A stretch of 24,000 bases of DNA, taken from assembly GCA_023393455.1 (NCBI GenBank), contig JAEWLJ010000017.1, positions 96,693 to 120,692 on the forward strand. Direction: 5' to 3'. Position numbers and translations under genes: made by a program. Position 1 is the stretch's first letter. Each line of letters begins with the position of its first letter. This document shows positions 911 through 16,956 of the stretch, in pieces. The notes beneath the pieces are model-generated. The model was given only the letters and a program-made list of their open reading frames with translations. It did not search any database and was not told where the DNA came from. The stretch is from Methanobacteriota archaeon. GTDB lineage: Archaea > Halobacteriota > Methanomicrobia > Methanomicrobiales > Methanoculleaceae.

Positions 911-1005
911 GGAATCAGTGTAGTATCGGTAAGTTAGTATGTTTTGTGCTTCGTGCTCCCGGCAGGAAGGCGGGAAGACCGGTGAAAATAGACCCCGGGG
1001 CCGCT

Positions 1006-2367
1006 TCAGCCCCGGCAGCAGTCCACGAAGTGCGCGAGCATCCCTCTGCTCGTCACCGGGTGGAGGTGCGTGTAACTCGCGATCGTCCGGTCGCGGACTG
1101 CACCGTCGAACCCGTCCCGGATCCCGCTCCCCCGGCTCAGCCGGTAGGCGTAGCGGGTCTCCGGCGCGAGGTCGACGCTGCTGTAATGAAACTCGTGCCC
1201 CTTGAACCCCGCCTCGCCCACGGGGCTCTCTGCCGCGCTCGTCCCGACGACGTAGCCGAGCATCCGGCGTGCGGGCATACGGGTCTCGCCGGCAAAGACT
1301 CCGGCGAGTTCGTAAACCTCCTCTCCCGCACCCGCGAAACCCGGGGCGAGCGCCATCCGGTCGGTGAGGTAGATGAGCCCCCCGCACTCCGCGTAGATCG
1401 GCGTGCCGTTCCGCGAGACCTCGCGGAATCCCTCCCGCATCGCGGTGTTCGCCTCGAGTTCCGCGCCGAAGAGTTCCGGGTAGCCGCCGCCGAGGATGTA
1501 GCCGTCGGCCTCCGGCAGCCGGTCGTGGACCGGGGAGAACGGGACGACCTTCGCGCCGCAGGACGCGAGGACGTCGAAGAGGTCCGCGTAGTAGAAGTTG
1601 AAGGCCTCGTCGAGCGCGACACCTACCCGGACGTCCAGATCGGGAGCCGCACATATGGTATCCTCCGCCGGCGGCTCCCCCTCCCGGGCGAGTGAGAGCA
1701 GCGCCTCCAGATCGACGTGTCCGGCGATCATCCGCTTCACGACCTCGATCCGGTCGAGGAACTCCCCGTGCCCCTGACCTTCCCGGTAGGGGACGAGGCC
1801 GAGGTGACGCATCGCAAGTTCCATCTCCTCCGTCCGGGGGATGACCCCCACGACCGGGATGCCGCAGTAGTGCTCGATCGCACGGACGGCCTTCTCCCGG
1901 TGGCGGGTCCCGGTGACGTTGTTCAATATCACCCCCCGGATATCGACGTCCGGGTCGAAGGCCTGGAATCCCTTCACGAGCGCCGCCGCGCTCCGGGTGA
2001 TGCTCCGGGCGTTGACGACGAGAATGACCGGCAGGTCGAGTTGTTTCGCGATCGCGGCCGTGCTCCCGAGGTCGGTGAGCGCCTCCGCACCCTCGAAGAG
2101 CCCCCGCACCCCCTCAACGACGGCGACATCCGCTCCCCGGCAGCCATGAGCATAGACCGCCCGGACCTCCTCCGGGCTCATCACGTAGCCGTCCAGGTTC
2201 CGGCAGGGCCGGCCCGTCACGCCCGTGAGGTAGGAGGGGTCGATGTAGTCCATCCCCACCTTGAAGGTCTGGACGGTCCGATCGGTCGAGAGGAGGGCCG
2301 AGAGCGCCAGGGTGACGCTCGTCTTCCCGCTCCCGGAGCGGTCGCCGGCGATGAGGAAGGACTTCAT
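1006..2367 (-). CDS. cfbB: Ni-sirohydrochlorin a,c-diamide synthase (CbiA/CobB-family amidotransferase)
   Basis: 453 aa. It has an N-terminal nucleotide loop [10 protein letters not shown] and a CobB/CbiA-like body. The C-terminal glutamine amidotransferase part carries the nucleophile motif [10 protein letters not shown]. The start overlaps the cfbD stop by ATGA, and the gene sits in an operon with CbiX-, NflD- and Mur-ligase-like genes. Confidence 0.85.
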
Positions 2368-3428
2368 CGCATGCTCCGCAGGACCGCCCCGAACTCGCTT
2401 GCGACGATATCCCGGACCCCGAGGGTCTTCGGGTGCAGGTCGATCTCGACCATGACGTGCCGGTGCCCTATCTCCCGGAGCGGCGCAACCTGCCGGGGCC
2501 CGTTCGTGACCGAGAAGACCTCGATGCCTTCGGTGTACTCCGGCGGGACGGCGTGCGGAACCCCGACGATGAGGACGAAGTCGGGGTTGATCTCCCGGAG
2601 CCGCTCCCCGATCGCGGGACCGTTCGCCCCGTACTCATCGAGCGCCCCGAGGAGTTCGGGGTCGACCGCGTGCTCCCGCATCCCCGCGAGGATCCGGTCG
2701 GCGTCCGCCCGGACCTTCGGGAGGCCCCGGTCTTCGAGGTTTGCGATGTAAGTGATGGCGGTATCCGGGCAGGCGTCATGGAGGCCGATCAGTTCGTCGG
2801 CGAACATATACGCGGTCTCCTTCTTCGCGTTCATGACCGCGACTCCCGTAGCACCCGAGTCGGCGAGTTCGACGAGGCGCTCTGCCGCGACGTGCTTGAG
2901 GTCGCCGCGGGAGGGCTCGATGTAGGCCCGGGAGGCCGCTCCCCGGAGCCTCTCCACCTCGTTTGCCTTCGCTAAAAGGTAGCGCTGCCGCTCCAGTTCG
3001 TCGGCGCTGATCCAGCCCGCGGCAGCGGCGGGCTCGAGCGTCGCGAGTACCCCGTCGATGTTCTCCCGGAACCCGGCATGGATATCCACGGCGATCGCCG
3101 GCGTCTCGACCTCCGCATCGTGGATCGCGGACTGAAGGTCTTCCCCGATGATCATCGAGACGCACGTCCCGACGACCGCTATCCGCCGGGGTGCAAACTC
3201 CTTCTCCGCGTGGCGGAGCACCCGCATCAGGGGGTCGTGCCCGCCGAATATGAACTCGTTGTCGGCAAGCGATGTCGTCAGCACTCGCATGCCGTCCTCT
3301 TCTAGGAGACGGGCGTGCTTGAACGAGCAGCCCGACGGGCCGTGGAGGATCGCCACGTCCACCCCCAGGTCGCGGGCGGTATACAGCGCCGCGACGATAG
3401 AACTCGGTCTTGGTTGAATGTAGTCCAT
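2364..3428 (-). CDS. cfbD: Ni-sirohydrochlorin a,c-diamide reductive cyclase, nitrogenase NifD/K-like component (NflD, methanogenesis marker 13)
   Basis: Nitrogenase component-1-like sequence is visible: ILHGPSGCSF, VVGTCVSMIIGEDL. I prefer the ATG at 3428, preceded by GGAGAT 7 nt upstream, over the GTG at 3440 used by the ORF track. The gene lies 2 nt after the cfbE stop. Confidence 0.8.
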   Translation of the reverse strand: MDYIQPRPSSIVAALYTARDLGVDVAILHGPSGCSFKHARLLEEDGMRVLTTSLADNEFIFGGHDPLMRVLRHAEKEFAPRRIAVVGTCVSMIIGEDLQSAIHDAEVETPAIAVDIHAGFRENIDGVLATLEPAAAAGWISADELERQRYLLAKANEVERLRGAASRAYIEPSRGDLKHVAAERLVELADSGATGVAVMNAKKETAYMFADELIGLHDACPDTAITYIANLEDRGLPKVRADADRILAGMREHAVDPELLGALDEYGANGPAIGERLREINPDFVLIVGVPHAVPPEYTEGIEVFSVTNGPRQVAPLREIGHRHVMVEIDLHPKTLGVRDIVASEFGAVLRSMR

Positions 3429-3430
3429 AG

Positions 3431-4585
3431 TTATCTCCACATCTTTACCGCGAGGACGATCGCGCCCGCCGGGGTGATCCTCCGGGCGGCGTCGAGCCCC
3501 GCCTCAAGCGTCGCCGCGGGATACCCCTCCCCGACGTAGACCGTCGCGGTCGGCCTGACGGTCGATACCGTCCGCAGGATCTCGTTCCTGGAGAACCCCT
3601 CGCAGACCGCCCTCGCCTCTTCGCCGATGACGAGGGTCAGCGGTGCGTCGCCTGAGAGTTCCCTCGCGTAGCGGGCGGCTTCAACGGTGGTCATCATGTT
3701 CGTCCCGCTGTTTGCGTTGTCGACGATCAGGATCCCCCCCTCCCGTCGCGCTGCCATCCGGCCGGGCAGGGCGGCAAACCCCCCAAGAGGGGATGGGTCG
3801 ATCCCGAGGATGCAGGCGGTCGCGGCCGCGAGCGCGAGCGGTGTCCGATAGCCCGGAAGGGTGCAGAGCGGGTTCTCAAACGACCCGGCGATCCCGTTCC
3901 CCGAGTAGCGACAGGCTGTCCCCTCGAAGGATACCATACTGTCGGCCGCGAACGCTCCGGGGAGGTTGATCTCCGGCGGGAGCACGACCGTCCGCGCCCG
4001 GGAGAGCAGCCGGCACTTCTCCACGATCGCGCTCTTCTTCCCCGCCGCGACCGGATAATCCTCCGGTGAGGTCAGCACCGCCACGTCTCCGGCGGCGGTG
4101 ACCCCGAGCGACTCCTCGGCGACCAGCCAGCCCCCGATCCGCTCCGCCTCGCGAACCGCCGGGATCAGGGAGGCGGGCGTGATGCTCCTCCTCCAGAGCC
4201 GCTCCCGTTCGGGGTAGCGGCAGGTCCCGGTCGAGGTGTGCAGGATGCCCGGGCCCGGCAGCAACGCCGCGATGGCGTGGGCGGTCGTGGTCTTCCCTCG
4301 TGCCCCGGTGATCTCGATGAACGGGTGAGGGAGCCGGTTGCCGAGAACCTGCTGCACCATCTCGTGGTGCGAGACTGCGGGGCCGTGGCGCCGCAGAAGC
4401 GGGTGATCGGGATCGAGGTGGACCGGTGCGGTGACGAGATCGTAGGTCCGGCCGAGCGCCTCCTCGACAGAGATGCCGGCCTGCCCCCGGTAGACGTCCA
4501 CCTCGTCTGCCTCGTGGCCGGCATCCCGGAGTGCTCCGGCGAGGTCCGCCCCGCCGTGGATGGTATCCAGCACCAGGATTCGCAT
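3431..4585 (-). CDS. cfbE: Coenzyme F430 synthetase (Mur-ligase-like)
   Basis: 384 aa with the Mur ligase central-domain P-loop ITGARGKTTTAHAIAALL. It lies between cfbA (5-nt gap) and cfbD, which is the diagnostic operon context. Confidence 0.8.
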   Translation of the reverse strand: MRILVLDTIHGGADLAGALRDAGHEADEVDVYRGQAGISVEEALGRTYDLVTAPVHLDPDHPLLRRHGPAVSHHEMVQQVLGNRLPHPFIEITGARGKTTTAHAIAALLPGPGILHTSTGTCRYPERERLWRRSITPASLIPAVREAERIGGWLVAEESLGVTAAGDVAVLTSPEDYPVAAGKKSAIVEKCRLLSRARTVVLPPEINLPGAFAADSMVSFEGTACRYSGNGIAGSFENPLCTLPGYRTPLALAAATACILGIDPSPLGGFAALPGRMAARREGGILIVDNANSGTNMMTTVEAARYARELSGDAPLTLVIGEEARAVCEGFSRNEILRTVSTVRPTATVYVGEGYPAATLEAGLDAARRITPAGAIVLAVKMWR

Positions 4586-4590
4586 ATTGT

Positions 4591-4998
4591 TCAGGGTTTC
4601 AGTTCGGCGATCGCGTCGGACGCGTTCTTCAGCATCAGTTCGGCGAGGAGCGGGTCGCTGCCGATCGGGTTTGCGTAGACAAGGGGCACCGTCTTCCCGT
4701 TCATCTGGAACTCGCCCTTCCGCTCTCCTTTCAGGAGGCCGATAATCTCGGGGATGTCCTGTTCGATGTGGACGCCTCGTGCGAGGAAGAGCGGGACGAC
4801 GACGAGCATATCGATATCCTCGCTCCGGAACGCCTCGAGCTGTTCCCCCACCGTCGGAGTGTTGAGGCTCATGAAACCGGGTTTGATGATGTAATCGTCC
4901 GACCTCTCGGCGATGAACTTCGCGGTGGTCTCGATGAGTTCCTTATTGTAGGGGAGCTTGCTCCCGTGGCCGACCAGTAACATACCTTTCATAGCCAT
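4591..4998 (-). CDS. cfbA: Sirohydrochlorin nickelochelatase/cobaltochelatase, small CbiX type
   Basis: 135 aa. Short CbiX hallmarks are present: LLVGHGSKLPYNKE and VVPLFLARGVHIEQDIPE. It is the first gene of the cfb operon. Confidence 0.85.
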   Translation of the reverse strand: MAMKGMLLVGHGSKLPYNKELIETTAKFIAERSDDYIIKPGFMSLNTPTVGEQLEAFRSEDIDMLVVVPLFLARGVHIEQDIPEIIGLLKGERKGEFQMNGKTVPLVYANPIGSDPLLAELMLKNASDAIAELKP

Positions 4999-5021
4999 AT
5001 GTTACAAGGTAATACGATATG

Positions 5022-5033
5022 ATATTAAAATAA
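5022..5033 (-). promoter_or_regulatory. Archaeal TATA box for the cfbAEDB operon
   Basis: The minus strand reads TTATTTTAATAT, centred about 30 nt upstream of the cfbA ATG (4998). It sits in the only AT-rich patch of the region (4999-5045). Confidence 0.55.
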
Positions 5034-5444
5034 TTACCGATTGGGTCTAAGGGCTCCGGCTCAAGATCCATCTGGTGGCTGAATTCGAACGGGGGATCGC
5101 CCACTACATCAGCCAGGTACTCACCCACCGACGGATCCACGGGTCCGCCTGGCGGCTCAAGCTGAGCAGGTTTAATACCCCGTGCATCGATGCCTTCCAT
5201 TGAGTACACACCGACAGGGACACCGTCCACCCGATCGATGCCATCTCCGCATTCATCCGGAAGACCGGCCGCTGGAATCTCCCTGTCGTAAAGTTCCAGT
5301 TTGATGCGGGGCTACCAGGGGAGTGCCCGGGCCAGGTAAGAAACGGTCTCCGGCCCTGCTGTGCATCTGAGCCATCCGGCGTGGAGTACGACCTGCCGGG
5401 ACCCGACACAAATATCCTCTCTCACCGCCAACTGATGGAGAAGT

Positions 5445-6584
5445 ATGATGGAAGCATATGATCGTTTTGAGCTCCTCATAAACGATCGGATCGTGAAAAC
5501 ACCGGTAGCGATCGCATCCATGGCCGGGATCGTGGATGCGGCGTACGTCCTCGAGCGGGCGGATCACGTCGGGGCGGCTTTCATCGGTGGCTACTCCATC
5601 GACGCCCCCACCATCGAGGCAAGCCGGCGGATGGCCGGGGAGGGTCGCAAAGAGTTTTTGTACGACGACCCACTCGAAGCGCTCGGCCGCGAGATCGACG
5701 CCCTGAAAGGGAGCGACGTCGTCGCAGGCATCAACCTCCGCGGGAGCACGCCCGCCTCCTATGCCGGGGTCGCCCGGGCGTTCGAGGACGCGGTGGTCTA
5801 CGAGATCGACGCCCACTGCAGGCAGCCGGCGATGCTTGAGGCCGGGTGCGGCGAGTATCTTCTCCAGCACCCGGGGCGACTCGCCGAGATCATCCGGGCG
5901 CTGAAGGCCGAAGACGTGACCGTCTCGGTGAAGATCCGGGCGGGTGTCGCCGCCGATGACGCCGCTCTCGCCCGCACCGTCTGGAAGGCGGGGGCGGATA
6001 TCCTTCACGTCGACCTGATGGACTTCGGGCACAACAAAGTCCGCCAGATCAGGAACGCCTCCCCCCTGACGCTGATCGCGAACAACTCCATCACCACCTT
6101 CGACAAAGCGATGGACGCCTTCTCCCACGGGGCCGACCTCATCTCGCTCGCCCGGAAGTCCGACCCCTGGACGCTTGCCGGCCTCGATGCCGCCATCACC
6201 CGGTCGGCCGAGGAGGGGGGCTGGTACAACGCCCCGAAACAACTCTGCCGCGGCGGCGATATCAGGGCGCTCGCCTTCTGCTGCATGCCGGTGAAGGCCT
6301 GTCCGCTCCTCCCGGCCCTCGAGAGGGTCGGGCTCTCCCGGGACAACTACCTGAAGTTCAAGCAGGAGGCGGCGAAGGGGACCCCGCTCGAAGACGGGAA
6401 GAGCACCTGTTTTGGGAGCCTCGCCTGGTGCTGCAAGATCAGTTCTCCCTGCATGTTCCGCAACATGACGCTTGAGAAGAAGGGTCTCTCTGCACGGGAG
6501 TACATGCGGTGCAAGCACCACCTCGCAGAAAAGATCATGCACAGGATATTCGATGAAGAAGAGTCCGTCGATGAATCGAGCTGA
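5445..6584 (+). CDS. DUS/DHODH-like TIM-barrel (putative flavin) protein with Cys-rich C-terminal extension
   Basis: 379 aa. Dihydrouridine-synthase-like motifs appear in order: VAIASMAGIVDAAY, YEIDAHCRQP, VSVKIRAGV. A ~130-aa tail carries 9 Cys (QLCRGG, FCCMPVKAC, STCFGSLAWCCKISSPC, RCKHH). GGAG lies 6-9 nt upstream of the ATG. Confidence 0.75.
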   Translation: MMEAYDRFELLINDRIVKTPVAIASMAGIVDAAYVLERADHVGAAFIGGYSIDAPTIEASRRMAGEGRKEFLYDDPLEALGREIDALKGSDVVAGINLRGSTPASYAGVARAFEDAVVYEIDAHCRQPAMLEAGCGEYLLQHPGRLAEIIRALKAEDVTVSVKIRAGVAADDAALARTVWKAGADILHVDLMDFGHNKVRQIRNASPLTLIANNSITTFDKAMDAFSHGADLISLARKSDPWTLAGLDAAITRSAEEGGWYNAPKQLCRGGDIRALAFCCMPVKACPLLPALERVGLSRDNYLKFKQEAAKGTPLEDGKSTCFGSLAWCCKISSPCMFRNMTLEKKGLSAREYMRCKHHLAEKIMHRIFDEEESVDESS

Positions 6585-7377
6585 ACGTGCGCAGATGGCG
6601 ATGATGCTCGAGGTCTCCGCCTACCCAAAACCCGGGAACGTAGACCGGTGCCACGACTATCCGGATACCCGTCTCGAGCACTTCCTCGCGTCGACGATCC
6701 TCGCTCGCCCGGTCTTTGACAAAGCCGAGAAGACCGGCGGCAGGGTAGGGAGCCTCATCAGGGAGGCAGTCAGCGTGACGAACGGGCATTCCGGGGGGAA
6801 TACCCATTTCGGGGCGTTCATCCTCCTCATCCCCCTCGTCGTCGGGGGCGAGATCGAGGGGGCGCGGCGGATCGTCGCTGCAACCGACGTCGAGGACGCG
6901 GTCGAGTTCTACGCGGCGTTCGGCCTCACGAGCGTCCGGATGGCGGAGAGCGACGATCTGGACGTGAACGACCCTGCCTCGGTCGCCGCCATCCAGGAGC
7001 GCGGGATGACCCTGGCCGACGTCATGGCCTACTCGGCGCCCCGGGACATGGTCGCCCGCGAGTGGACGAACGGATTTCGCCTGACCCGGCGGTGCGCCGA
7101 CCTGCTCCACGCGCACGGGTGCGGCAGGGAGTCGATCGTCGCGGCGTTCCTCGATCTCCTGGCCACAGAGCCGGACACCTTCATCGCGAAGAAGCACGGA
7201 GAGGCCGTGGCGGAGAAGACGATGCGGGCCGCGGAGGAGGTGCTCGACGGGAGGCGGGATCTCGCCGCATTCGATGCGGAGTGTGTCGCCGCCGGGATCA
7301 ACCCGGGATCGATAGCCGACATAACCATCGCCGGGATATACGTGGCGCTCGGGGAGGGGTGGCAGTGGGACTGCTGA
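6553..7377 (+). CDS. Triphosphoribosyl-dephospho-CoA synthase (CitG/MdcB)-like protein
   Basis: CitG-family N-terminus AQMAMMLEVSAYPKPGNVDR, plus GGNTHFGAFILL. The start is either ATG 6553 or ATG 6571, and both overlap the end of the upstream gene (6584). Confidence 0.8.
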   Translation: MKKSPSMNRAERAQMAMMLEVSAYPKPGNVDRCHDYPDTRLEHFLASTILARPVFDKAEKTGGRVGSLIREAVSVTNGHSGGNTHFGAFILLIPLVVGGEIEGARRIVAATDVEDAVEFYAAFGLTSVRMAESDDLDVNDPASVAAIQERGMTLADVMAYSAPRDMVAREWTNGFRLTRRCADLLHAHGCGRESIVAAFLDLLATEPDTFIAKKHGEAVAEKTMRAAEEVLDGRRDLAAFDAECVAAGINPGSIADITIAGIYVALGEGWQWDC

Positions 7378-7934
7378 CCGAAGGGATCAACGAGGTGATC
7401 GCGACCACCGACCACAACGCCGCTCCGATGGGGATCATCAACCGAAACGGCTCGCTCCATATGGTCCTCTTCCGGGGCAGTCACACCGCCCGGAACATCG
7501 CCCGCGACCGGTGGGTGGTGGCGAACTTCGTCTTCGACCCGGTGATCTACGTCAGAACCGCGTTCGAGGACCTCCCGCTGGATGCATTCGTCTCCGAGGA
7601 GATCGACGGGATGACCGTCTCCCGCCTCCGTGACGTGGAGGCATGGGCTGCGTTTGCCGCCGACGTGGAGCGGTCGAGCGGCGAGGCGTTTGTCGTGCGG
7701 CTCAGCCCCTTGAAAGAGGAGGTGCTCGGTCTCCGGCTGCGCCCGGTGAACCGGGGGTTTGCAAGCATCGTGGACGCGACAGTCCATGCCACCCGTTACG
7801 TCGAGAACCGCGATCCATGGCTCGGGCAGCTTATCGAGCACCACAGCGCCCTTGTCCGGAAGTGCGGCGGCGCCCGGGAGTGGGAGGCGCTCGAACTCCT
7901 CGAAGGATATATCGCCGATCCGACACGCGAGTGA
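7365..7934 (+). CDS. DUF447-family protein (FMN-binding split-barrel-like)
   Basis: DUF447-like N-terminus (V)GLLTEGINEVIATTDHNAAPMGII. The in-frame GTG at 7365 overlaps the CitG-like stop (7375-7377). An alternative ATG lies about 60 nt downstream. Confidence 0.7.
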   Translation: MGLLTEGINEVIATTDHNAAPMGIINRNGSLHMVLFRGSHTARNIARDRWVVANFVFDPVIYVRTAFEDLPLDAFVSEEIDGMTVSRLRDVEAWAAFAADVERSSGEAFVVRLSPLKEEVLGLRLRPVNRGFASIVDATVHATRYVENRDPWLGQLIEHHSALVRKCGGAREWEALELLEGYIADPTRE

Positions 7935-7988
7935 GAGGCGACCCTCTTCCCGGAGGTGCGTATCCTCACCGGGTTCAATATTTCACGA

Positions 7989-8010
7989 CATATAATAATA
8001 TCTATATATG
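7989..8010 (+). promoter_or_regulatory. TATA-box region for FAS1 gene 1
   Basis: CATATAATAATATCTATATATG lies 40-60 nt upstream of ATG 8050. GGGAGG (8035-8040) serves as the ribosome-binding site. Confidence 0.5.
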
Positions 8011-8049
8011 AGAGCCGACCACGAACCGCCCGCAGGGAGGTACCTGGTA

Positions 8050-8496
8050 ATGGCGAAGATCTTTGATACGTTACAGAATGATAGCAGGTTCGGCCGGCTG
8101 GTCGAGATCATCCAGACCCTCGGTGAGGAGAAGACGCTGCAGGGCGAAGGGCCGATGACGTTTTTTGCCCCGGTCGACTCGGCGTGGGACGCAATCCCCG
8201 AACCGAACCAGTCGATGATCATGAACGACAAACAGATGCTCTCGCACCTGATCGACTTCTTCACGATCGGCAATCACAAGTGCACGCTTGAGGCGCTCCT
8301 GAAAAAGAACGTCGTGCAGACTGTCGAAGGAAACAACATCATGGTCAGGAAGACCGACCGGGGTACGCAGGTGGACACGGCCGTCGTGATCGAGGGAGAC
8401 ATCGAGGTGGAGAACGGGATCATCCATGTCCTGGACGGTGTTCCCTTTGCGACGCTTGCGCAGGCCGAACAGGCCTACCTGTCGACGAACGTTTGA
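8050..8496 (+). CDS. Fasciclin (FAS1) single-domain protein, no signal peptide (paralog 1)
   Basis: The start is set at MAKIFDTLQNDSRF, the ATG at 8050 with GGGAGG 9 nt upstream. FAS1 motifs are present: TFFAPVDSAW, NGIIHVLDGV. The FAS1 fold begins at residue ~3. Confidence 0.85.
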   Translation: MAKIFDTLQNDSRFGRLVEIIQTLGEEKTLQGEGPMTFFAPVDSAWDAIPEPNQSMIMNDKQMLSHLIDFFTIGNHKCTLEALLKKNVVQTVEGNNIMVRKTDRGTQVDTAVVIEGDIEVENGIIHVLDGVPFATLAQAEQAYLSTNV

Positions 8497-8497
8497 A

Positions 8498-8538
8498 CCC
8501 GGGCCGGAGAGCATCGTCCGGCCGGGAACCTATTTTTT
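8498..8538 (+). terminator. Hairpin plus T6 run after FAS1 gene 1
   Basis: CCCGGGCCGGA-GAGCATCG-TCCGGCCGGG forms a ~10-bp stem with one bulge. It is followed by TATTTTTTCT, with the T6 run at 8533-8538. Confidence 0.55.
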
Positions 8539-8593
8539 CTTCCCGCCAGGATACAGCGCTCCTCTCACCGGGCCGGCATCACCATGCCAGTAA

Positions 8594-8603
8594 TTTTATA
8601 TAT
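8594..8603 (+). promoter_or_regulatory. TATA box for FAS1 gene 2
   Basis: TTTTATATAT is centred about 33 nt upstream of ATG 8631. Confidence 0.55.
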
Positions 8604-8630
8604 CCAGTAAAATGATCCCGGGGGTTACCC

Positions 8631-9056
8631 ATGAAGAGTATCATTGAGACAGCCCGGGAAGATGACCGGTTGAGCACCTCCGTTGCGATGCTGCAGGCCG
8701 GAGGGAAGGTGGAGATGCTCCAGGGAGGGGAGTATACCGCGTTGTTCCCAACGAACGAGGCATATTCCAATTTCTCCCGGGAGGCGATTGAGAGCATCAC
8801 GGCCGATCGGGAGCGGCTTTCCGGTATGATCCTGTACCATGTGATCCAGGGCAAGCTCACCACGCACGAACTCGCGCAGATGGAGGCGATCAGGACACTG
8901 CAGGGCGACCACCTGGACCTTACGGGGCCTCCTCGTGCGCTACGGGTGAACGATGCCACCGTCATCCAGCCCGACGTCGAGTGCACGAACGGCATCTATC
9001 ATGTCATCGACAGGGTGCTCCTGCCGCAGGTGGTCGAGGCGCGGGTGAAGCGATAG
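8631..9056 (+). CDS. Fasciclin (FAS1) single-domain protein, no signal peptide (paralog 2)
   Basis: 141 aa, MKSIIETAREDDRL... FAS1 motifs are present: ALFPTNEAYS, YHVIQGK, CTNGIYHVIDRVLLP. Confidence 0.88.
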   Translation: MKSIIETAREDDRLSTSVAMLQAGGKVEMLQGGEYTALFPTNEAYSNFSREAIESITADRERLSGMILYHVIQGKLTTHELAQMEAIRTLQGDHLDLTGPPRALRVNDATVIQPDVECTNGIYHVIDRVLLPQVVEARVKR

Positions 9057-9124
9057 GTTCCCGGCCGGAGAGCGTCCGGCGGCGTGGATCGGCCGGCTCA
9101 TCGGGCCGTGCGGGCCTGCCCGTA

Positions 9125-9136
9125 GTTATATATATC
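9125..9136 (+). promoter_or_regulatory. TATA box for FAS1 gene 3
   Basis: GTTATATATATC lies about 40 nt upstream of ATG 9170. GGGAG sits at 9156-9160. Confidence 0.5.
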
Positions 9137-9169
9137 GTGCCCCCGCAACTCCCGCGGGAGTTAGTTCGC

Positions 9170-9604
9170 ATGAAGAGTATCCTCGCGACCCTGCGTGACT
9201 CGGGATCGTTTGACGTCTTTCTTGACCTTGTACGGGCGGCCGGCATGGAGAAGCGGTTCGAGATCGACGGGCCTTATACGCTCTTCGTCCCGGACGACGA
9301 TGTCTTCCGGGAGGTTCCCCGGCCCAGACTCGAGGCCATCCTCCGGGACGCCGACCGGCTCGGCGATACCCTGAACTACCATACCGTCCCCGGCGTGCAC
9401 TCCATGATCGATCTCCTCGGCATAGGGACGCTCCGGTCGCTCCAGGGCGATGACCTGACCGTGGAGGTTGCGCCGGGGGGGGTGCTGGTCAACGGTGCGG
9501 CGGTCGTGGAGTCCGATGCTTGGTGCACCAACGGGATCTGCCACGCGGTCTCCACGCTGCTCCTGCCGCCGCCCGTTGCAAGAACGGCCGCCGTACGCGG
9601 GTAG
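9170..9604 (+). CDS. Fasciclin (FAS1) single-domain protein, no signal peptide (paralog 3)
   Basis: The start is trimmed to ATG 9170 (MKSILATLRDSGSF...). Motifs present: LFVPDDDVF, YHTVPG, WCTNGICHAVSTLLLP. The upstream part of ORF 8981..9604 is Arg/Gly-rich and spans the TATA box. Confidence 0.85.
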   Translation: MKSILATLRDSGSFDVFLDLVRAAGMEKRFEIDGPYTLFVPDDDVFREVPRPRLEAILRDADRLGDTLNYHTVPGVHSMIDLLGIGTLRSLQGDDLTVEVAPGGVLVNGAAVVESDAWCTNGICHAVSTLLLPPPVARTAAVRG

Positions 9605-9610
9605 CCGGAA

Positions 9611-9623
9611 CGTATAAATAATC
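9611..9623 (+). promoter_or_regulatory. TATA box for FAS1 gene 4
   Basis: CGTATAAATAATC lies about 38 nt upstream of ATG 9656. GGAG sits at 9644-9647. Confidence 0.5.
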
Positions 9624-9655
9624 AGGTACGGTTAGGTGCGCGTGGAGAGAGCAAC

Positions 9656-10081
9656 ATGAAGAACATCATCGAAACCCTGGAGGACTCCGAGAACCTCGCC
9701 GTTTTTCTCGATCTGGTCAGGATAGCGGGGATGGAACCGATGCTCCGTGAGAGGGGGCCGTTCACGGTCTTCGTCCCGACGGACGAGGCGTTCTCGCGGG
9801 TCCAGAAGGAGCGGATGGATGAGATACGGCAGGATGCGGATAAACTCCTCCTCATCGTGAGTTACCACGTCGTGCCGGGGCGGTTGGCCTCGGAGGATCT
9901 CCGGAGCATCGCCGCCGTCCGGTCGAGCCTCGGGACGGATCTCGTCATACGGTCCTCCGACCGGGGAATCACCGTCAACAGTGTCCCACTCGTCGATACC
10001 GACGCGTTCTGCACCAACGGGATCTGCCACGCGATAGCGTCGGCGCTCGTCCCGCCGACACTGGAGATCGTCACCCCCTGA
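9656..10081 (+). CDS. Fasciclin (FAS1) single-domain protein, no signal peptide (paralog 4)
   Basis: 141 aa, MKNIIETLEDSENL... Motifs present: VFVPTDEAFS, YHVVPG, FCTNGICHAIASALVP. Confidence 0.88.
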   Translation: MKNIIETLEDSENLAVFLDLVRIAGMEPMLRERGPFTVFVPTDEAFSRVQKERMDEIRQDADKLLLIVSYHVVPGRLASEDLRSIAAVRSSLGTDLVIRSSDRGITVNSVPLVDTDAFCTNGICHAIASALVPPTLEIVTP

Positions 10082-10086
10082 TCGGG

Positions 10087-10991
10087 CTACCGCTCTCGCG
10101 GCAGGCGGAACCGCCCGTCCCGCCGGGCGATCCCGACGGCGGCAAGGGCACTCTTCTCCTTATCCTTGATCTCGAGCATGATGTCCATATCCGCCGGTGC
10201 GGTCGCGGCGAGGAACCGCTCGAAGTCGGCAGCATCAAGGCTCTCCGCGTGCCGGCCCTTTCGCCCGCCGGGCATCGGGGTGCTGTAATCGACCATCGGG
10301 ATGCCGTCGCGGGGTCGCCAGGTCGCGCCGGAGAGTTCGACCGCTTCGGCTACCGTTACGCCGGAGGGATTGACCTGGTGGTGGAAGGCGTCGAAGAGCA
10401 CCGGGATGCCGGTCTCCTCGTGGATGCGGAGGCAGTCGGCCAGGGTGTACCGCGAGTCATCGTTCTCGACGACCAGCCGACGGATGACGCACTCGTCGAG
10501 CCCTGAATAGACGTTCGTGAACCGCATCATGACGGATTCGGGGTCGCCGTAGACCCCGCCGATGTGGATCTGGATCTTCGCGGTCCCATCGAGGTGCATG
10601 GCGTCGAGAAGGGCGGCGTGGTAGCGGAGTTCCGCGACGCTCCGCTCAACGATACCGGGGTCTTTCGCGTTGATGACGACGAACTGGTCGGGGTGCATGG
10701 AGATCCGCATATCGTGCTCGCGAACGAACCGGCCGATCTCGCGAAACCTCTCCGCGAAGGCCCCCTGCCAGTCGGCGGTGCAGACCGGGTGCGATGCGAA
10801 CGGCACGAGGCCGGAGCCGATCCGGAAGAAGAGGAGCACTCTTTGAGATTGAAGTGGAGGATCTCCCCAAGGCACCTGAGATTCTCCCGGACGGTCTCCT
10901 CCAGCCGTTCGCCGGAGTAGGAGGAGAGCCGGAACGTGCGGCCCGAAGAGCAGCCGATGCTCCGGTTGATGCACGGGTAGCCGATCTTCAT
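10087..10991 (-). pseudogene. uvdE: UV damage endonuclease UvdE, split by a 1-nt frameshift near 10839 (or a sequencing error)
   Basis: The N-terminal UvdE homology ([14 protein letters not shown]...FRLSSYS...[15 protein letters not shown]) is in the frame starting at 10991. The rest ([18 protein letters not shown]...IQIHIGG...VVENDD...LFDAFHH...MLEIKDKE) is in the frame ending at 10087. The two frames share a single G at 10839. Confidence 0.75.
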
Positions 10992-11025
10992 GGCTCTCCC
11001 GGGTGATCCCGGACAGGCATCAACC

Positions 11026-11910
11026 TTACCTACAGGTATATGTGCCCTCGCTCTCGGCGACGAACCCCTCGCGGGCGAGGTCGCCGAGGATCCGCTTCAC
11101 CCGCCCCGGCTCTTCGCAGAGCCGGAGGATCATCTCCTTCTCCGTGACCGTCCCTTCATCGAGGACGAGCGCGAGGATTCGCCCCCTGATCTGGCGGTCG
11201 GAACCCTCGAACCGGCTCTGCCGGGAGTAGGACGCGCTCCTCCGGTTCGGGTTCGCCGTCCGCTTCTTCAAGACCGTACCGTAGTCCATCATCGCGCTGT
11301 ACCACTCCCGCGGGTTCTCGCGGTAGAGGGCCAGTTCGACGAGCGGGAGGATCTCGTCGTCCCGGACGCCTTCCCGGTCCTGGAAGAAGAAGTGGATGAA
11401 GATCCGCCGGATGTTCGTCTCGATGTAGACGACCGGCATGTTGAACGCATACGCAACAATCGCCGCCGCGGTCGCCTTCCCGATCCCGGGGAAGGTCGCG
11501 AGCGTCTCGACGTCGGCGGGGAGCCTGCCGCCGTACTCCTCCGTCACGCGCCGCGCGGTCTCCTGGAGCGCGATTGCCCGGCGATTGTAGCCCATCCCCT
11601 GCCAGGCGAGGAGCACCTCACTTCTGGGGGCACGGGCAAGGCTCCCGAAGCCCGGGAACTGCTCGATGAACTCCTGGTACTTCACGGCGACCCGCTCGAC
11701 CTGCGTCTGCTGGAGCATGATCTCGGAGACCAGGATCCGGTAGGGATCGGTGGTGTGCCGCCAGGGGAGGTCGCGGCCGTGGACCCGGAAGTAGGAGAGG
11801 ATGAGGTCGCGGAAGAGAGCGATGGTCTCTGGCGTGGGCCCGTGCGCCCGGGTCTCTTCGAGGATCCGCTGTTCGAGGTCGTTCTGGTCGGGGTCGAGGC
11901 TACCGATCAC
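11026..11910 (-). CDS. HhH-GPD DNA glycosylase, MutY-like catalytic core without Fe-S cluster loop, C-terminal winged-helix
   Basis: MutY-like stretches are visible: [34 protein letters not shown], Hh[13 protein letters not shown]. The start is proposed at GTG 11910, because 11911-12210 of the ORF is AT-rich and not protein-like. The tail ...[21 protein letters not shown]...[12 protein letters not shown] looks like a wHTH. Confidence 0.8.
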
Positions 11911-12259
11911 GGTATATCGTTTGTCTGACAGGGGCAAATAGGTTGGGCCGGGGGGTGGAGGAGTATCCCACGCGTATGAATGTAAATAGGTTCGCTGAAC
12001 CAGAACAAGAATGATGTAGTTACAGCCTTCTCTGGAAAACGGGCTTGAATATTCGCCGTTCTGTTTTCGCATGCCCGTGAACGGCTTTCCAGTTGGTATC
12101 CCCACGGTCCAGTGTATCGGGGCCGCCGGGGTAGATCGCAATTCAGGTAATCTTCTTACAAACTGCAGAGTTTTAATCCCTACAGATGTGATAAGAGGTC
12201 TTTTGGGCACGGAGGCCGCTCCAATAACCCGTTCTCACAGCGCGCCCCGACGAGCCTCT

Positions 12260-15200
12260 TCACTCCATCCGCGCCCGCATCACCGTGAGCCGGACGCCCG
12301 ACTCGCCTTCGATCTCGAATGTCCGCGTATCGCCGTGCACCCGGCAGAACTCCTGCAGGTCGAGCATATGCCGGAACCCCGCCGCCGCCTTCTCGTTCTG
12401 CACCAGTTCAAGCGGCGGCTCTAAGAGCGGCCGGGGCAGGAAGACCACGCACTTCGCCCGGCTCCGGGTCAGGGATACGTTCAGGCGGTTTCTGCTGTAG
12501 ATGAACTCGGCCTCGCGAAGGGCGGTCTCGACGTCGCTCACGCCGTAACTGATGATCGCGCTCTCTGCCTCCTGTCCCTGCATCTTGTCGACGGTGTCCA
12601 CGAACGGCGGATACTTCCAGATCTGCACCCCGGCGAGACCGGTCTTGATGGCGCCGATCTGGGCGTGGTGCGGGCTGACGATGAAGAGCCCGTGCCGCCA
12701 GAACCGGTAATCTCCGTCCTCCGTCGCCGGATACCGTTCTCCCGAACCGGGATCGACGAGCCGCTCCCGGAGCGCTCCGGCGAGCCGGGCGACCAGCGCC
12801 GCCTCGACCGGGTTCTCCACTGTCGTCCGGACGCCCTCGAGGACGCAGAGCACGAGCGGGTATGCCGGATCGATGGCCCACTCCACCCACTCCTCCAGCG
12901 GCGGAGCCGGCGCGAGGGCGATCCGCTGCCCCGAGATCGCGTCGGTTGCGGGAGCGTAGCCGGTGCCGTAGAGCGTCTCCGCCGGGAACCCCGAGAGGGT
13001 GCGGTTCATCCGCCAGTTCTCCTGGAGCTGGCAGGTGTAGACCGGGCGGGCGGGGTCGTCGCGGTGCCGGAGGTAGGCGAAGACGGAGTCCTCGAGCCCG
13101 GGGAGGCCGTCAGCCGGTGCGGGATACGCCCCCTGGACAACCGGCGGAAGCTGGAGGTCGTCCCCCGCGAGGACGAGCCGGCCGGCCGGCCCGAGCATCG
13201 GGAGCACCATCGCGAGCTCCGCCGCCCGCATCTGCGACGCTTCGTCGACGATCAAGATATCGAGGGACGGGAGTGACTTCTCGAGTTTTGCGAACCCGTG
13301 CACCGTCCCGCCGAGGAGGAGGCCAGGGTAGCCGACGACGGTCTCCGCCCGGTCGTGAGCCAGCACCTCGAGGCTCCGCTCCCCGCCGGGCGTCCGGATA
13401 TCCCCCAGTTTGTAGATCGGCAGACCGGCAGCAAGGCCGAACTCGTCGACCGAGGCCTGCACCTTGACGAGCAGGTTCTCGACGGCCGCGTGAGTGAACG
13501 CCGCGACTCCCACACGGATCCGCTCCCCGTGCGCCCGCCGGGCTTTGACGAGCGAGAGGATGGTCGTCGCGAGGAAGTGCGTCTTCCCGGTTCCGGGCGG
13601 CCCCCAGACCAGGGTCAGGCGGTTCTCCGTCACGTGGGAGAACGCCGTATTCTGGCTTCTCGTGAACCCTGCCTCGCGGGCGAACCGCCCGGCGTCGGCG
13701 GCGACCCCTCGGGGCTCACCGGTCGGCGCGGCGAACCCCCGCGGGTCACAGAGGAGACGAATGAAGTCGTTCTCCGGCTGCTCGTCGAGAGCGAGGAGGC
13801 GGTCGACGTAGCGCGGCGCGATGAAGTCCGTGAACCGGGGGTGCAGCACCGCGAGATCGCCCTCGTCAAACGGCGGGTGATCCCGGGAGTAGGCCACCTC
13901 CAGCACGAGCCCCCTGACCTCCCCGGCCGTCCGGTCGACGATGGTGTCGCGGACCCTCGCGAAACAGACCCCGCTGTTCCTGGGGTTCGGGCTGCTCCGG
14001 TAGCGGAGGTCGTCGAACGCCTGCTCCGCCTCCTCGCCCGCCTCGCCTTCCGGCACGAGGAGGTAACTGAACGCCCGTGACTGCTCGAAGAGTGCGAGAT
14101 CCAGGGGGCCGAGCACCTTCCAGAAGTTCCCCTCGCTCTTCATGAGGGGGATGCTAACACCGTCCCGGACCCTTGCCGCCCGCGGCCCGCTCCGCAGTTC
14201 CTGCACCTGCCGGGCACCCATCGTCGACTCGTACTCTGCGATGAAGAGGAGGCGGGATATCTCGGGCGTCGCAGCGTCCCAGGAACCCGGGAACCGGAAC
14301 TTCTCCGCCCACCGCACGAGTTTCTCCTTCGTCCGTTCGCGGAGCCCGTCGAGGACGCTCCCCGCGGCGAGCAGGCGGCGCGAGACCTCCTGCCGGACCC
14401 AGTCGAGAGCCTCCGGCCGGTTCCCGTGCCATGCCATGATGATGGCGTCGCTCTTCATGGCGTTACCGTGCTCGCCCCAGAAGAGGGAGCTCGCATCAAG
14501 CCGGTACGCGAACCGGGAGGAGGGGATCGCCGCGAGGACCTCGGGCAGGCGGAGGGTGAACGGGACGGGAAGCGCGAGCAGCCGCCGGATCTCCCTTGTC
14601 AGGGCGACGATCGGGAAGGAAACGGACGTACTTGGGTGGCTTGACCCAAGAGCGATGCCGGGATCCTGGTAGTAGAACCGCAGCCTGAGAGCGTCCGCGG
14701 CCGTTACGGGGTCGTCGAGCGCCTCTTCGAGCAGGCGAGTGAAGAGTTCCTCCTCGTAGGTGTCGTAGACGTAGGTCTGCACCGACTCCTGTTCAGCCCA
14801 GTCGCGGCCCCGGTTGTAGTCGTCGACGGTCGTGAGTTCCGCGGCGAGAGCCCGGAAGAACTCCCGGCGCACCCGGGCACAGTCGCCGGGGTCTTTTGCG
14901 ACATAGATCGCTTCGTGCGACGGCGTCCCATAGACGGCCTTGCCCCTGCTCCGCCGGAACCCGAGGGCGTATACCCGGCCGGAGACGGGATCCTTCTGGA
15001 GCGTCAGGGTGACGGCGATATCCTCGTAGACGGGGAGTGCAAGCGAGGTCGCGGCGAGCGGAATGACCTCTCCCGTGGTGAGCGCCCGGACGGTCGCCCG
15101 CAGGCGGTCGCCCTGGCCGGCGAGCGACCCGCAGTTGTCGAGGCAGCCATCGCTCTCCGGATCGCGGAGGAGGTCGGCGAGGTCGGAGAGCGCGTTGATC

Positions 15201-16039
15201 GGGAGCCCGCCGTCCCACGGGGCTTCTCGAAGGTAACGTCGCCCGCCGGACGAGAGACCCGGGATCTGCGATACCGAGGAGGAGGCCTCCGCCTCAGCGC
15301 GGCAGTGGGCGTAGAACTCGCAGGACTCGCATCGCGACGTGAGGTGCCAGGGCACGTCCTCCGGAGGGGCGGCAAGGATACCCGGGAGGCGGTGGCGGAG
15401 GAACTCCTCGATCACCCGTCTGTTGAGGGAGAGGTCAAAGGGTTCCGGTTCGTCCTCCCCGTAGAGCCAGATCCCCGCGCGGTTCCGGTCGACCGGGAGA
15501 TCGAGCCCGAGCAGGTCCAGGGCGTGATCGAGGATCAGGACGTACAGCGTCGCCTGGATTCGGTGGCTGACGCTGAGTTCTTCGCTTGCCTTGATATCGA
15601 TGATCCGGAGAGACCCTTCTTTATCGGCCCTGATGAGATCGGGGCGGCAGGGGGAGAACCGGTGCATCCCGGGGTCGAGGCCGTAGTCCTGCAGGAAGTG
15701 GATCGAGGCCGGGATGGTCGTCTGGTAGATCGCCTCGCCCGGGGAGAGGAGAGGGAGGAGGTTGAAACTCTCCTCGATGGAGAACGACCTCTCGGAGATT
15801 GGCCCCGTCCCGTCCGGGATTCGTACCCTGCCCATGAGTTTCGTCCGGATCACCTCCTCCTCCCACCGGATGCCGGCATCGAGGAGGGCTCGCGTCACCG
15901 GGCTCGTATCGATCGCGGCCGCCGGGATACCGGCTCTGGCACGCTCCTGCTCCGGGGTCGCGTGGTAGCGGAGATGGCGTTCGCAGTCGTGGTAGAAGAA
16001 CCGGCCGATGAGCGACGGGCTGAGGTTGAAGCGTGGCAT
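12260..16039 (-). CDS. Cas4/AddB-type Fe-S PD-(D/E)XK nuclease + HhH/RNase-H-like module + Upf1/Dna2-type SF1B helicase fusion (1259 aa)
   Basis: Nuclease: C19, D134 (PDLIR), IIDIKAS (D148/K150), QATLY, and CESCEFYAHC (CX2CX5C, nt 15302-15331). HhH: IPGLSSGGRRYL. Helicase: Walker A GPPGTGKT (nt 13580-13603), ILIVDEASQM, LAGDDLQLPPV, QENWRM, VDTVDKMQGQEAE, RLNVSLTRSRAK. Confidence 0.9.
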   Translation of the reverse strand: MPRFNLSPSLIGRFFYHDCERHLRYHATPEQERARAGIPAAAIDTSPVTRALLDAGIRWEEEVIRTKLMGRVRIPDGTGPISERSFSIEESFNLLPLLSPGEAIYQTTIPASIHFLQDYGLDPGMHRFSPCRPDLIRADKEGSLRIIDIKASEELSVSHRIQATLYVLILDHALDLLGLDLPVDRNRAGIWLYGEDEPEPFDLSLNRRVIEEFLRHRLPGILAAPPEDVPWHLTSRCESCEFYAHCRAEAEASSSVSQIPGLSSGGRRYLREAPWDGGLPINALSDLADLLRDPESDGCLDNCGSLAGQGDRLRATVRALTTGEVIPLAATSLALPVYEDIAVTLTLQKDPVSGRVYALGFRRSRGKAVYGTPSHEAIYVAKDPGDCARVRREFFRALAAELTTVDDYNRGRDWAEQESVQTYVYDTYEEELFTRLLEEALDDPVTAADALRLRFYYQDPGIALGSSHPSTSVSFPIVALTREIRRLLALPVPFTLRLPEVLAAIPSSRFAYRLDASSLFWGEHGNAMKSDAIIMAWHGNRPEALDWVRQEVSRRLLAAGSVLDGLRERTKEKLVRWAEKFRFPGSWDAATPEISRLLFIAEYESTMGARQVQELRSGPRAARVRDGVSIPLMKSEGNFWKVLGPLDLALFEQSRAFSYLLVPEGEAGEEAEQAFDDLRYRSSPNPRNSGVCFARVRDTIVDRTAGEVRGLVLEVAYSRDHPPFDEGDLAVLHPRFTDFIAPRYVDRLLALDEQPENDFIRLLCDPRGFAAPTGEPRGVAADAGRFAREAGFTRSQNTAFSHVTENRLTLVWGPPGTGKTHFLATTILSLVKARRAHGERIRVGVAAFTHAAVENLLVKVQASVDEFGLAAGLPIYKLGDIRTPGGERSLEVLAHDRAETVVGYPGLLLGGTVHGFAKLEKSLPSLDILIVDEASQMRAAELAMVLPMLGPAGRLVLAGDDLQLPPVVQGAYPAPADGLPGLEDSVFAYLRHRDDPARPVYTCQLQENWRMNRTLSGFPAETLYGTGYAPATDAISGQRIALAPAPPLEEWVEWAIDPAYPLVLCVLEGVRTTVENPVEAALVARLAGALRERLVDPGSGERYPATEDGDYRFWRHGLFIVSPHHAQIGAIKTGLAGVQIWKYPPFVDTVDKMQGQEAESAIISYGVSDVETALREAEFIYSRNRLNVSLTRSRAKCVVFLPRPLLEPPLELVQNEKAAAGFRHMLDLQEFCRVHGDTRTFEIEGESGVRLTVMRARME

Positions 16040-16344: not shown

Positions 16345-16956
16345 TCAACCTTCGCCAATCAGCATCACCCCTGGTTCGTTGAGCACGTTCATGACGAACG
16401 GATCGCCCTCGGCGATCCTCTGATCCATCTCCTCTCTCGGGAAGAGAACATAGTTTATCTCTCTTCCAAGTGCTGCTTCTGTCTCCCGGACGACGGGCAT
16501 CCGGAGGTCTTCATCAACATCCCCGACGATGAAGAGGTCGATGTCGCTTGTCGCACCAGCCTTTCCACTGGCGAAGGAGCCGAAGATGAAGACGGTATCG
16601 ACGCCGCCGACGCCGGCGAGGCCTTCTCGTACGACCTTGGCCACTTCTTCGGTCTTGAGGATGATAGCAGTCAACTCGGGGTAGATCGGAAAATTCTTGT
16701 TTACCACGTAGTACCGCGCATTGCCGCGGCGGGTACTCGTCGGGAGGCCAATCTCCTCGAGGTTTGCGAGTTCCCGCCGGACAGCGTTGAGGTTCTCTCC
16801 GGTCATCCGCTGAACCTCTCGGAGATAGATCTCGCGCTCCGGGTTCAGGAGGAAGAGGATTCGGAGTTTCACCCGGGTCTTCGAGGGAATGAGCCGTTCG
16901 AGCACGAATACATATTGTATACGATACTCCGGTGCAGGGGCCGGACCGCCCCTCAC
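16345..16956 (-). CDS. Winged-helix (ArsR-like) + minimal nucleotidyltransferase (MNT-type) fusion protein
   Basis: wHTH: KTRVKLRILFLLNPEREIYLREVQRMTGENLNAVRRELANLEEIGL. NTase: FIFGSFASGKAGATSDIDLFIV (GS...DxD). The start is either GTG 16956, in a GTGA overlap with the upstream stop, or GTG 16905. Confidence 0.8.
   Translation of the reverse strand: MRGGPAPAPEYRIQYVFVLERLIPSKTRVKLRILFLLNPEREIYLREVQRMTGENLNAVRRELANLEEIGLPTSTRRGNARYYVVNKNFPIYPELTAIILKTEEVAKVVREGLAGVGGVDTVFIFGSFASGKAGATSDIDLFIVGDVDEDLRMPVVRETEAALGREINYVLFPREEMDQRIAEGDPFVMNVLNEPGVMLIGEG

Follow-up and report, generated by a model that had tools for sequence, protein, structure and literature searches.

A conserved tandem array of single-domain FAS1 genes without export signals in a Methanoculleaceae archaeon

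A stretch of 24,000 nucleotides from a Methanobacteriota archaeon of the family Methanoculleaceae (assembly GCA_023393455.1, contig JAEWLJ010000017.1, positions 96,693 to 120,692; 24 kb with 64% G+C, hereafter the window) carries four consecutive genes, g1 to g4, each encoding a single FAS1 (fasciclin) domain with no recognised export signal. Together they form a conserved tandem array of separate single-domain FAS1 genes, a notable local feature whose copy number ranges from two to nine. Taken as a whole, the locus may encode independently transcribed cytoplasmic single-FAS1 proteins that act as protein-binding adaptors, an explanation that we put forward tentatively.

Four FAS1 genes and their N-termini

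The four genes lie on the plus strand at 8050-8496 (g1; 148 aa, N-terminus MAKIFDTL), 8631-9056 (g2; 141 aa, MKSIIETA), 9170-9604 (g3; 144 aa, MKSILATL) and 9656-10081 (g4; 141 aa, MKNIIETL), and g4 is convergent with uvdE. Each product covers positions 2 to 120-123 of the 123 positions of the Pfam Fasciclin profile PF02469, with 80-98 bits compared to a gathering score of 22 bits (E 2.6e-22, 8.4e-28, 1.1e-25 and 3.6e-27 for g1 to g4). These scores confirm a preliminary description of this DNA, which had reported four consecutive plus-strand open reading frames (ORFs) of 141-148 aa with one FAS1 domain each. No more specific NCBIfam model matched g1-g4. Pairwise identity among the four paralogs is 22-45%.

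AlphaFold models built on family alignments gave a canonical FAS1 fold for g4 (predicted local distance difference test (pLDDT) 94, predicted TM-score (pTM) 0.89) and a complete FAS1 fold with an additional C-terminal helix at residues 136-146 for g1 (pLDDT 85, pTM 0.81). In both models the N-terminal helical part is placed on the beta-sheet wedge and the FAS1 topology is complete from residue 4, so the monomer prediction that the preliminary description had proposed returned an intact domain in either case. Foldseek searches with the two models gave a probability of 1.0 and TM-scores of 0.78-0.89 against TGFBIp FAS1-4, CupS and LRC6. The family motifs TxFAP(T/D)D, the YH dyad and NG(I/V)xH are present in g2-g4. 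The most divergent paralog, g1, keeps the H1 and H2 motifs but has FF instead of the YH dyad. By profile, fold and motifs, with the exception of the YH dyad in g1, g1-g4 belong to the FAS1 domain family.

A cysteine motif distinguishes part of the set. The sequence C-T-N-G-I-C-H spans the conserved NG hairpin at residues ~120-126 of g3 and 119-125 of g4 (DNA at about 9527-9547 and 10010-10030). It is kept by every g3 and g4 orthologue and by the single-copy relatives at the loci L001 and L086, whereas g2 has only the first Cys and both Cys of C-x4-C-H are absent from g1 and from g5, a fifth FAS1 paralog in the window.

No Sec, Tat, lipobox or transmembrane signal and no C-terminal anchor was recognised by hydropathy and stop-codon positions in g1-g4 or in more than 30 homologues from 10 related loci. 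The highest 19-residue Kyte-Doolittle mean was 0.7-1.3 in g1-g4, compared to 2.31 in g5 (residues 7-25). Upstream of the start codons of g1, g2 and g4, the frame stays open for 17, 5 and 17 codons, respectively, before the previous in-frame stop. The hydropathy maxima and upstream stops agree with the preliminary description, which had noted no hydrophobic leader, lipobox or transmembrane segment in these proteins. For g3, 126 codons are open upstream and include a GTG at 8981; they overlap g2 out of frame and cross the g3 TATA element, and the stretch that they would encode is strongly hydrophilic and shows no conservation of length or sequence in L081, L002 and L087. An in-frame ATG at 8008 upstream of g1 falls within the TATA tract, and a Met at this place is absent from orthologues; the upstream extension of g1 is hydrophilic, overlaps the promoter and is not conserved.

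Signal peptides hidden behind alternative starts were found neither in g1-g4 nor in the more than 30 FAS1 ORFs of the 10 related loci. All of these ORFs have Met at profile position 1, and the stretches upstream of them are either short (4-22 codons) or non-hydrophobic and unconserved. Upstream starts with signal peptides in orthologues, which the preliminary description had named as the observation that would speak against leaderless proteins, were thus not encountered. Since they lack a signal peptide, g1-g4 fall outside the classical secreted or surface class of FAS1 proteins, and the absence of export signals makes a cytoplasmic location likely.

The fifth paralog, g5 (16953-17573, minus strand, 206 aa, Pfam E 1.5e-34), served as a comparator and is a secreted or lipoprotein-type FAS1 protein. 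Its N-terminus, MRTNYTLFISVLAIGAAVLICGC, is hydrophobic and ends in a lipobox-like LICGC, and it is the only member of the FAS1 set in the window with the features of a signal peptide. N-x-S/T sequons number ten in g5, compared to two in g1, one in g2 and none in g3 or g4, which fits different compartments. The earlier claim of a fifth paralog with a signal peptide and sequons therefore holds, with the addition that the gene lies on the minus strand. In a neighbour-joining tree, g5 groups with bacterial FAS1 proteins, outside the leaderless clade. The g5 gene overlaps by 4 nt an ORF with a nucleotidyltransferase domain (16345-16956, minus strand) that is absent from the orthologous locus L081, and its upstream neighbour (17637-19094, minus strand) encodes a thioredoxin-like protein with NHL repeats.

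Promoters and conservation of the array

Stretches of 10 nt composed entirely of A/T occur at six places in the window (17 overlapping matches compared to 0.57 expected from shuffles), and each of the four genes g1 to g4 is closely preceded by one of these six sites. The four sites are placed 28-58 nt before the ATGs, and the AT-rich tract of g1 reaches to about -61. This g1 tract, resembling a TATA box with a B recognition element, spans 7989-8009 on the plus strand (A/T-only at 7990-8001), and an equivalent tract was found upstream of the g1 orthologues in L081, L002, L083, L085 and L087. The TATA element of g2, TAATTTTATATAT, lies at 8591-8603 on the plus strand, 28-40 nt before the ATG; its context CCGTAAtTTTATATA is common to g3 and is conserved in L081 and L002. 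Those of g3 (TTATATATAT, 9126-9135, plus strand) and g4 (GTATAAATAAT, 9611-9622, plus strand) were located by the A/T scan, the former also by repeat analysis, and the g4 promoter sequence ACGTATAA(A/G)TAAT is conserved in L081 and L002. TATA elements stand at equivalent distances in the other Methanoculleus-type loci, the exception being two genes of L087. These two of the nine L087 genes have no TATA element of their own and are separated from the preceding gene by 21-27 nt. The earlier proposal that each copy has its own TATA element is therefore upheld, with a position conserved in Methanoculleus, although the range of 33-45 nt originally given was too narrow.

A terminator-like G+C-rich hairpin follows g1 at 8498-8541 on the plus strand (CCCGGGCCGGA...TCCGGCCGGG, then TATTTTTTCTT). 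A hairpin and T-run of different sequence occupy the same place after g1 in L081 and L002, and L083 and L085 have a hairpin and T-run, again of different sequence, after g2. With a TATA element for each gene and a hairpin with T-run after g1, it is very probable that each of the four genes has its own promoter and that one or more terminators lie within the array. A sigma-70 and terminator scan added nothing, its model being unsuited to archaeal promoters, and Rfam contained no RNA element matching the intergenic regions of the array.

A second hairpin region, CCCGGCCGGAGAGCGTCCGGC..., follows g2 at 9053-9100 on the plus strand. The repetition of the hairpin after g1 and g2 that had been noted before is real (8499-8527 compared to 9060-9088, 76% identity over 29 nt). 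The further suggestion that the duplication unit included flanking DNA is unsupported, because the duplication is ancient and the orthologous hairpins differ in sequence. Given the age of the duplication, the likeness of the two hairpins looks like the result of shared terminator and promoter function, or of recent local conversion. The first 17 nt of the second region are the exact reverse complement of 8517-8533, so that a perfect 17-nt inverted repeat (TCCGGCCGGGAACCTAT / ATAGGTTCCCGGCCGGA, at 8517-8533 and 9053-9069) brackets g2 and its promoter. The chance of a perfect 17-nt match within 2.3 kb is very low. The inverted repeat is not conserved in L081, L002 or L087 and, for this reason, we do not take it as the signature of a mobile element or of recombination.

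The array is conserved at one locus, between the genes for DUF447 and UvdE, in most of the Methanoculleus-type loci examined, with two, four, five or nine copies. A scan of a genome collection gave at least two Methanomicrobiales loci among the matches listed, and other variants of the array were retrieved by exact-protein look-ups. Four genes are present in L081 and L082 (148, 142, 143 and 141 aa, between DUF447 and uvdE), in L002 (from an ORF scan with the FAS1 profile) and in L085, where a PAS protein is inserted. L083, from M. taiwanensis, has five genes with an inserted multi-PAS protein. Two genes stand upstream of uvdE in L088, with DUF447 not upstream. The largest array, L087 (JGI metagenome 3300057055), comprises nine consecutive genes of 138-148 aa at 4305-8983, followed by AHSA1/SRPBCC, MarR and Lon genes and then uvdE. 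L001, L086 and L089 have single genes in unrelated contexts. The locus is thus still dynamic, gaining and losing copies.

At the sequence level, a protein with 100% identity to g4 is encoded on NCBI, ENA and Logan contigs, and named Methanoculleus species have proteins 84-94% identical to it; the full-length relatives of g4 at 50% identity or more are nearly all 141 aa long, with a few of 136-142 aa. Orthologues of g1 were confined to Methanoculleus or Methanomicrobiales records. In the neighbour-joining tree the genes fall into four orthogroups, with g3 and g4 as sisters, and g2, g3, g4 and the extra copies of L087 cluster in a leaderless clade apart from g5. Given 22-45% identity between paralogs and four genus-wide orthogroups, the duplications are ancient, and the spread of the orthogroups across Methanoculleus indicates that they predate the radiation of the genus. 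The pairwise ratio of non-synonymous to synonymous substitutions (dN/dS) of orthologues is 0.16-0.45, indicating that each copy is under purifying selection. Of the earlier suggestion of a cytoplasmic or unconventionally exported FAS1 subfamily expanded by local duplication, the clade and the tree support the expansion; the compartment is deduced from the absent signals.

These data also bear on the possibility that the lack of leaders is only apparent, caused by the choice of start codons, or that g1-g4 are decaying remnants of secreted FAS1 genes. The long open frame with a GTG upstream of g3 and the in-frame ATG upstream of g1 would allow the former, but in-frame stops precede g1, g2 and g4 by 5-17 codons, and the g1 and g3 extensions are hydrophilic and unconserved. 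Decay is at odds with lengths of 141-148 aa kept across the genus, with the dN/dS values and with intact predicted folds. Mis-called starts and pseudogenes were rejected on these grounds, and either origin is extremely improbable.

FAS1 proteins of known location and a possible adaptor role

A sequence search of the PDB with g4 retrieved the extracellular proteins TGFBIp, periostin, Fdp (E 9e-17) and MPT70 (E 1e-8) as well as the intracellular proteins CupS/Tll0220 (E 4e-14) and LRC6 (E 5e-16), and also AstaP. The best single-domain match of g1 was CupS (E 8e-16, residues 1-139 aligned to 1-137). The CupS chain 6tjv_Q matched the fold of g4 with a TM-score of 0.87 and a root-mean-square deviation of 1.2 Å, and that of g1 with a TM-score of 0.80. 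Fold comparison also returned FAS1-like folds in a Toxoplasma mitoribosome protein and in the African swine fever virus core-shell protein p15.

CupS (Tll0220/Sll1735; PDB 2MXA, 6TJV) resembles g1-g4 in being a leaderless single FAS1 protein of ~150 aa with a domain that begins at residue 1-4. It is the small subunit of NDH-1MS, the complex with which cyanobacteria take up CO2, and was solved on the cytoplasmic side of this complex, where it is an intracellular protein-binding cap; it caps CupA, binds two helical lobes and is proposed to stabilise the contact between CupA and NdhF3 (PMC6981117). The position of CupS in NDH-1MS means that a leaderless, intracellular, protein-binding FAS1 domain is established biology. 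Unlike a CupS orthologue, however, g1-g4 are 27-33% identical to CupS, no closer than to secreted FAS1 domains, and their host is a methanogen rather than a cyanobacterium. The cupS gene is a single gene and is not known to form tandem arrays. It is linked to ndhF3, ndhD3 and cupA, whereas a scan of 20 window ORFs and the gene tables of the related loci showed none of cupA (ChpX/Y), ndhF3 and ndhD3. Because this linkage is missing and the similarity is of a generic FAS1 level, g1-g4 are not CupS orthologues, and the analogy rests on architecture.

A second intracellular precedent is LRC6, the red-algal phycobilisome rod-core linker (5Y6P, 6KGX), which is a FAS1 structural adaptor in the plastid stroma and matches g4 with a TM-score of 0.83-0.84 at 28-30% identity. 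LRC6 differs in its ~70-residue N-terminal extension and in being eukaryotic and plastid-located, and methanogens have no phycobilisomes. Rhodobacter Fdp (1W7D) and mycobacterial MPB70/MPB83 (1NYO) are prokaryotic single FAS1 proteins as well, but they have a signal peptide and are extracellular, whereas g1-g4 lack one. It is g5 that is of the Fdp/MPB83 type, and its LICGC recalls the LAGC of MPB83.

Leaderless FAS1 proteins are also common in bacteria. A phmmer search of the whole library gave 19,816 FAS1 representatives at E <= 0.001, the top 150 being dominated by multi-domain proteins. The 80 genome loci closest to the query alignment contained 83 bacterial FAS1 ORFs; 14 of these are leaderless, and most of the 14 are cyanobacterial or from Armatimonadota. 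The nearest relatives of g2 outside Methanoculleus are leaderless bacterial FAS1 proteins of 135 aa from Gaiellaceae and others, which are 37-41% identical and start with MPHNIVETAREAG; among the bacterial relatives of g2, 54 of 62 are leaderless and at most 137 aa long. The leaderless bacterial proteins of 133-137 aa (Nostoc, Calothrix, other cyanobacteria, Armatimonadota, Gaiellaceae) consist of the domain only, with Met at profile position 1, stops 0-10 codons upstream, 32-41% identity to g2 and g4 and an N-terminus, MKNIIE(T/V)A, that is nearly that of g2. They differ from g1-g4 in being single genes in the loci examined, and from g3 and g4 in lacking C-x4-C, with one exception to the single genes (L030), which is paired with a leader-bearing FAS1 gene. 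Being uncharacterised, these bacterial proteins give no help in assigning a function to g1-g4.

The preliminary description had implied that leaderless members of a surface-domain family are anomalous. Their leaderless nature stands, but the surprise is lessened by CupS, by the linkers of phycobilisomes and by the large number of bacterial homologues that have no leader. Reviews and automatic annotation treat FAS1 as a cell-surface adhesion domain, and the main review of the family treats it as extracellular, with leaderless prokaryotic forms not discussed (PMC6032426). At the present locus, a whole archaeal subfamily has no export signal, and selection has maintained it, in two to nine copies, for as long as the genus has existed. 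Together with the frequency of leaderless FAS1 proteins in bacteria, this argues that the literature greatly understates how widely FAS1 has an intracellular role, one that has so far been documented for CupS and the phycobilisome linkers.

For the function of g1-g4 we favour, with the tentativeness stated above, a role as cytoplasmic adaptors. Here the four proteins would be small, acidic and soluble, kept in the cytoplasm of Methanoculleus species, and descended from old tandem duplicates that diverged into four orthologous lines. Each would be a non-enzymatic binding module, a cap or adaptor docking on a partner protein or complex, and the divergence of the paralogs would give different partner specificities. 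This adaptor mechanism, drawn by analogy, is a possibility that we advance with some reserve. Literature searches on archaeal and methanogen fasciclins found no functional study and none assigning a function to such an array, as the preliminary description had also stated. Since gene context identifies no partner or pathway, the adaptor explanation was chosen on architecture and precedent.

Several observations weigh against this explanation. The leaderless call was made from hydropathy and stop-codon positions only. The similarity to CupS is no greater than that to the secreted TGFBIp FAS1-4 domain or to Fdp. Public annotations name these genes 'uncharacterized surface protein with fasciclin repeats', although this label is automatic. 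Variation in copy number and a moderate relaxation of selection would be just as expected of surface or adhesion families. The gene context indicates no partner for g1-g4: DUF447 upstream and uvdE downstream are conserved only within Methanoculleus, the neighbours of the single-copy relatives differ, and no neighbour is shared among the 14 bacterial leaderless FAS1 loci.

Some of these observations recur in the case for export by a route other than a classical signal (vesicles, lysis or an unknown route), which would make g1-g4 soluble or surface proteins of adhesion or matrix, perhaps in syntrophic aggregation. Such export would suit a domain that is predominantly extracellular and adhesive (PMC6032426), and both the range of two to nine copies and dN/dS values as high as 0.45 are reminiscent of surface families. 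In Methanoculleus, a gene with a fasciclin domain was reported to be upregulated on agitation or floc disruption (PMC12008871), in a study whose supplements do not name the gene, and the FAS1 protein All3797 occurs in the Anabaena exoproteome among many cytoplasmic proteins. We nevertheless consider export unlikely, as signal peptide, lipobox, transmembrane segment and C-terminal anchor are missing in more than 30 homologues, g1-g4 are nearly free of sequons compared to the secreted g5, a signal-bearing FAS1 protein is already available in g5 for a surface role, and no dedicated secretion genes lie near the array. A different cytoplasmic role can be drawn by analogy from AstaP (8C18): a hydrophobic tunnel between the helical lid and the beta-sheet would take up a small hydrophobic compound, for instance a cofactor or an isoprenoid lipid intermediate, and g1-g4 would be its carriers. 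AstaP is a single FAS1 protein that binds a long hydrophobic ligand (PMC10147662) and whose structure matches the fold of g4 (8c18, TM-score 0.79); in addition, the L087 array is followed by an AHSA1/SRPBCC ligand-binding protein, and the Methanoculleus array adjoins the F430 and Dus-like/CitG-like/DUF447 clusters. AstaP is, however, secreted and glycosylated, with a signal peptide and disordered N- and C-terminal flanks, whereas g1-g4 are domain-only and 15-23% identical to it. The AstaP study also reports that only some homologues bind carotenoid and that, under the same conditions, the one from Synechocystis did not (PMC10147662). The link to cofactor genes is lost for the single-copy relatives and so looks like genus-level synteny. 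A carrier function would thus also be improbable.

The cysteine motif raises the further possibility that C-x4-C-H in the NG beta-hairpin serves the g3/g4 lineage as a redox sensor or metal-binding site and that a signal is passed from there to partners such as PAS proteins. The motif is present in all g3 and g4 orthologues and in L001 and L086 and missing from g1 and g5, multi-PAS proteins lie inside the L083 and L085 arrays, and PAS/GAF proteins adjoin the single genes of L086 and L089. As g1 lacks the motif and g2 has one Cys of the two, such a role could not account for the array in full. PAS proteins also occur in unrelated contexts of several of the Methanomicrobiales loci examined and are expected to be numerous in these genomes, so adjacency is weak evidence. 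We regard this role as quite unlikely. A more far-reaching form of the adaptor explanation is very unlikely as it stands: g1-g4 might be an exchangeable set of cytoplasmic FAS1 caps for a membrane-bound energy-converting complex of the methanogen, docking in the manner of CupS, with the complex-I-related Ech/Eha/Mbh-type hydrogenases as candidates for this complex and with C-x4-C-H adding redox or metal sensing in g3 and g4. If true, complex-I-like machines of both Bacteria and Archaea would have had FAS1 as an intracellular accessory module since ancient times. The gains from the present finding are modest. It corrects an annotation of localisation and offers four soluble paralogs with which the binding targets of cytoplasmic FAS1 proteins could be found; it opens no new mechanism and resolves no long-standing question.

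Neighbouring genes

The left part of the window (41-4998, minus strand) is a cluster of the coenzyme F430 biosynthesis type (cfb) with a class IV aminotransferase at its end. It includes a small CbiX, CfbA-like protein (4591-4998), a CfbE-like ORF (3431-4585; Pfam CfbE_C was matched in the orthologous L081 gene), a nitrogenase-like component (2364-3440) and a CobB/CobQ-type amidotransferase (1006-2367), all on the minus strand. Directly upstream of the array, genes for a Dus-like flavoprotein, a CitG-like triphosphoribosyl transferase and the DUF447 protein stand in a row (5445-7934, plus strand). This trio stays with the array in most Methanoculleus-type loci (not in L088) and not with the single-copy FAS1 genes. 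Facing g4 is a DNA-repair run (10087-16039, minus strand) that encodes UvdE, an HhH-GPD glycosylase and a 1259-aa helicase-nuclease protein with a PD-(D/E)XK nuclease and an SF1 helicase (AAA_11/AAA_12). The cfb genes, the trio and the repair run accompany the array only inside Methanoculleus. Assignment of a function from gene context was therefore rejected, since the neighbours are limited to the genus, the single-copy relatives lie elsewhere and the bacterial loci share none.

In the M. taiwanensis lineage, the multi-PAS protein inside the FAS1 array (L083, 7818-9422; L085, 6504-7457) has a C-terminal region that resembles a histidine-kinase dimerisation region and lacks an ATPase domain. 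In L086 and L089, PAS/GAF proteins are neighbours of the single-copy FAS1 gene. Towards the right end of the window, a methanogenesis regulator of the FilR1 family (21676-22542, minus strand) adjoins a gene for a metallo-beta-lactamase-fold protein with a C-terminal lamin-tail domain (22675-23955, plus strand).

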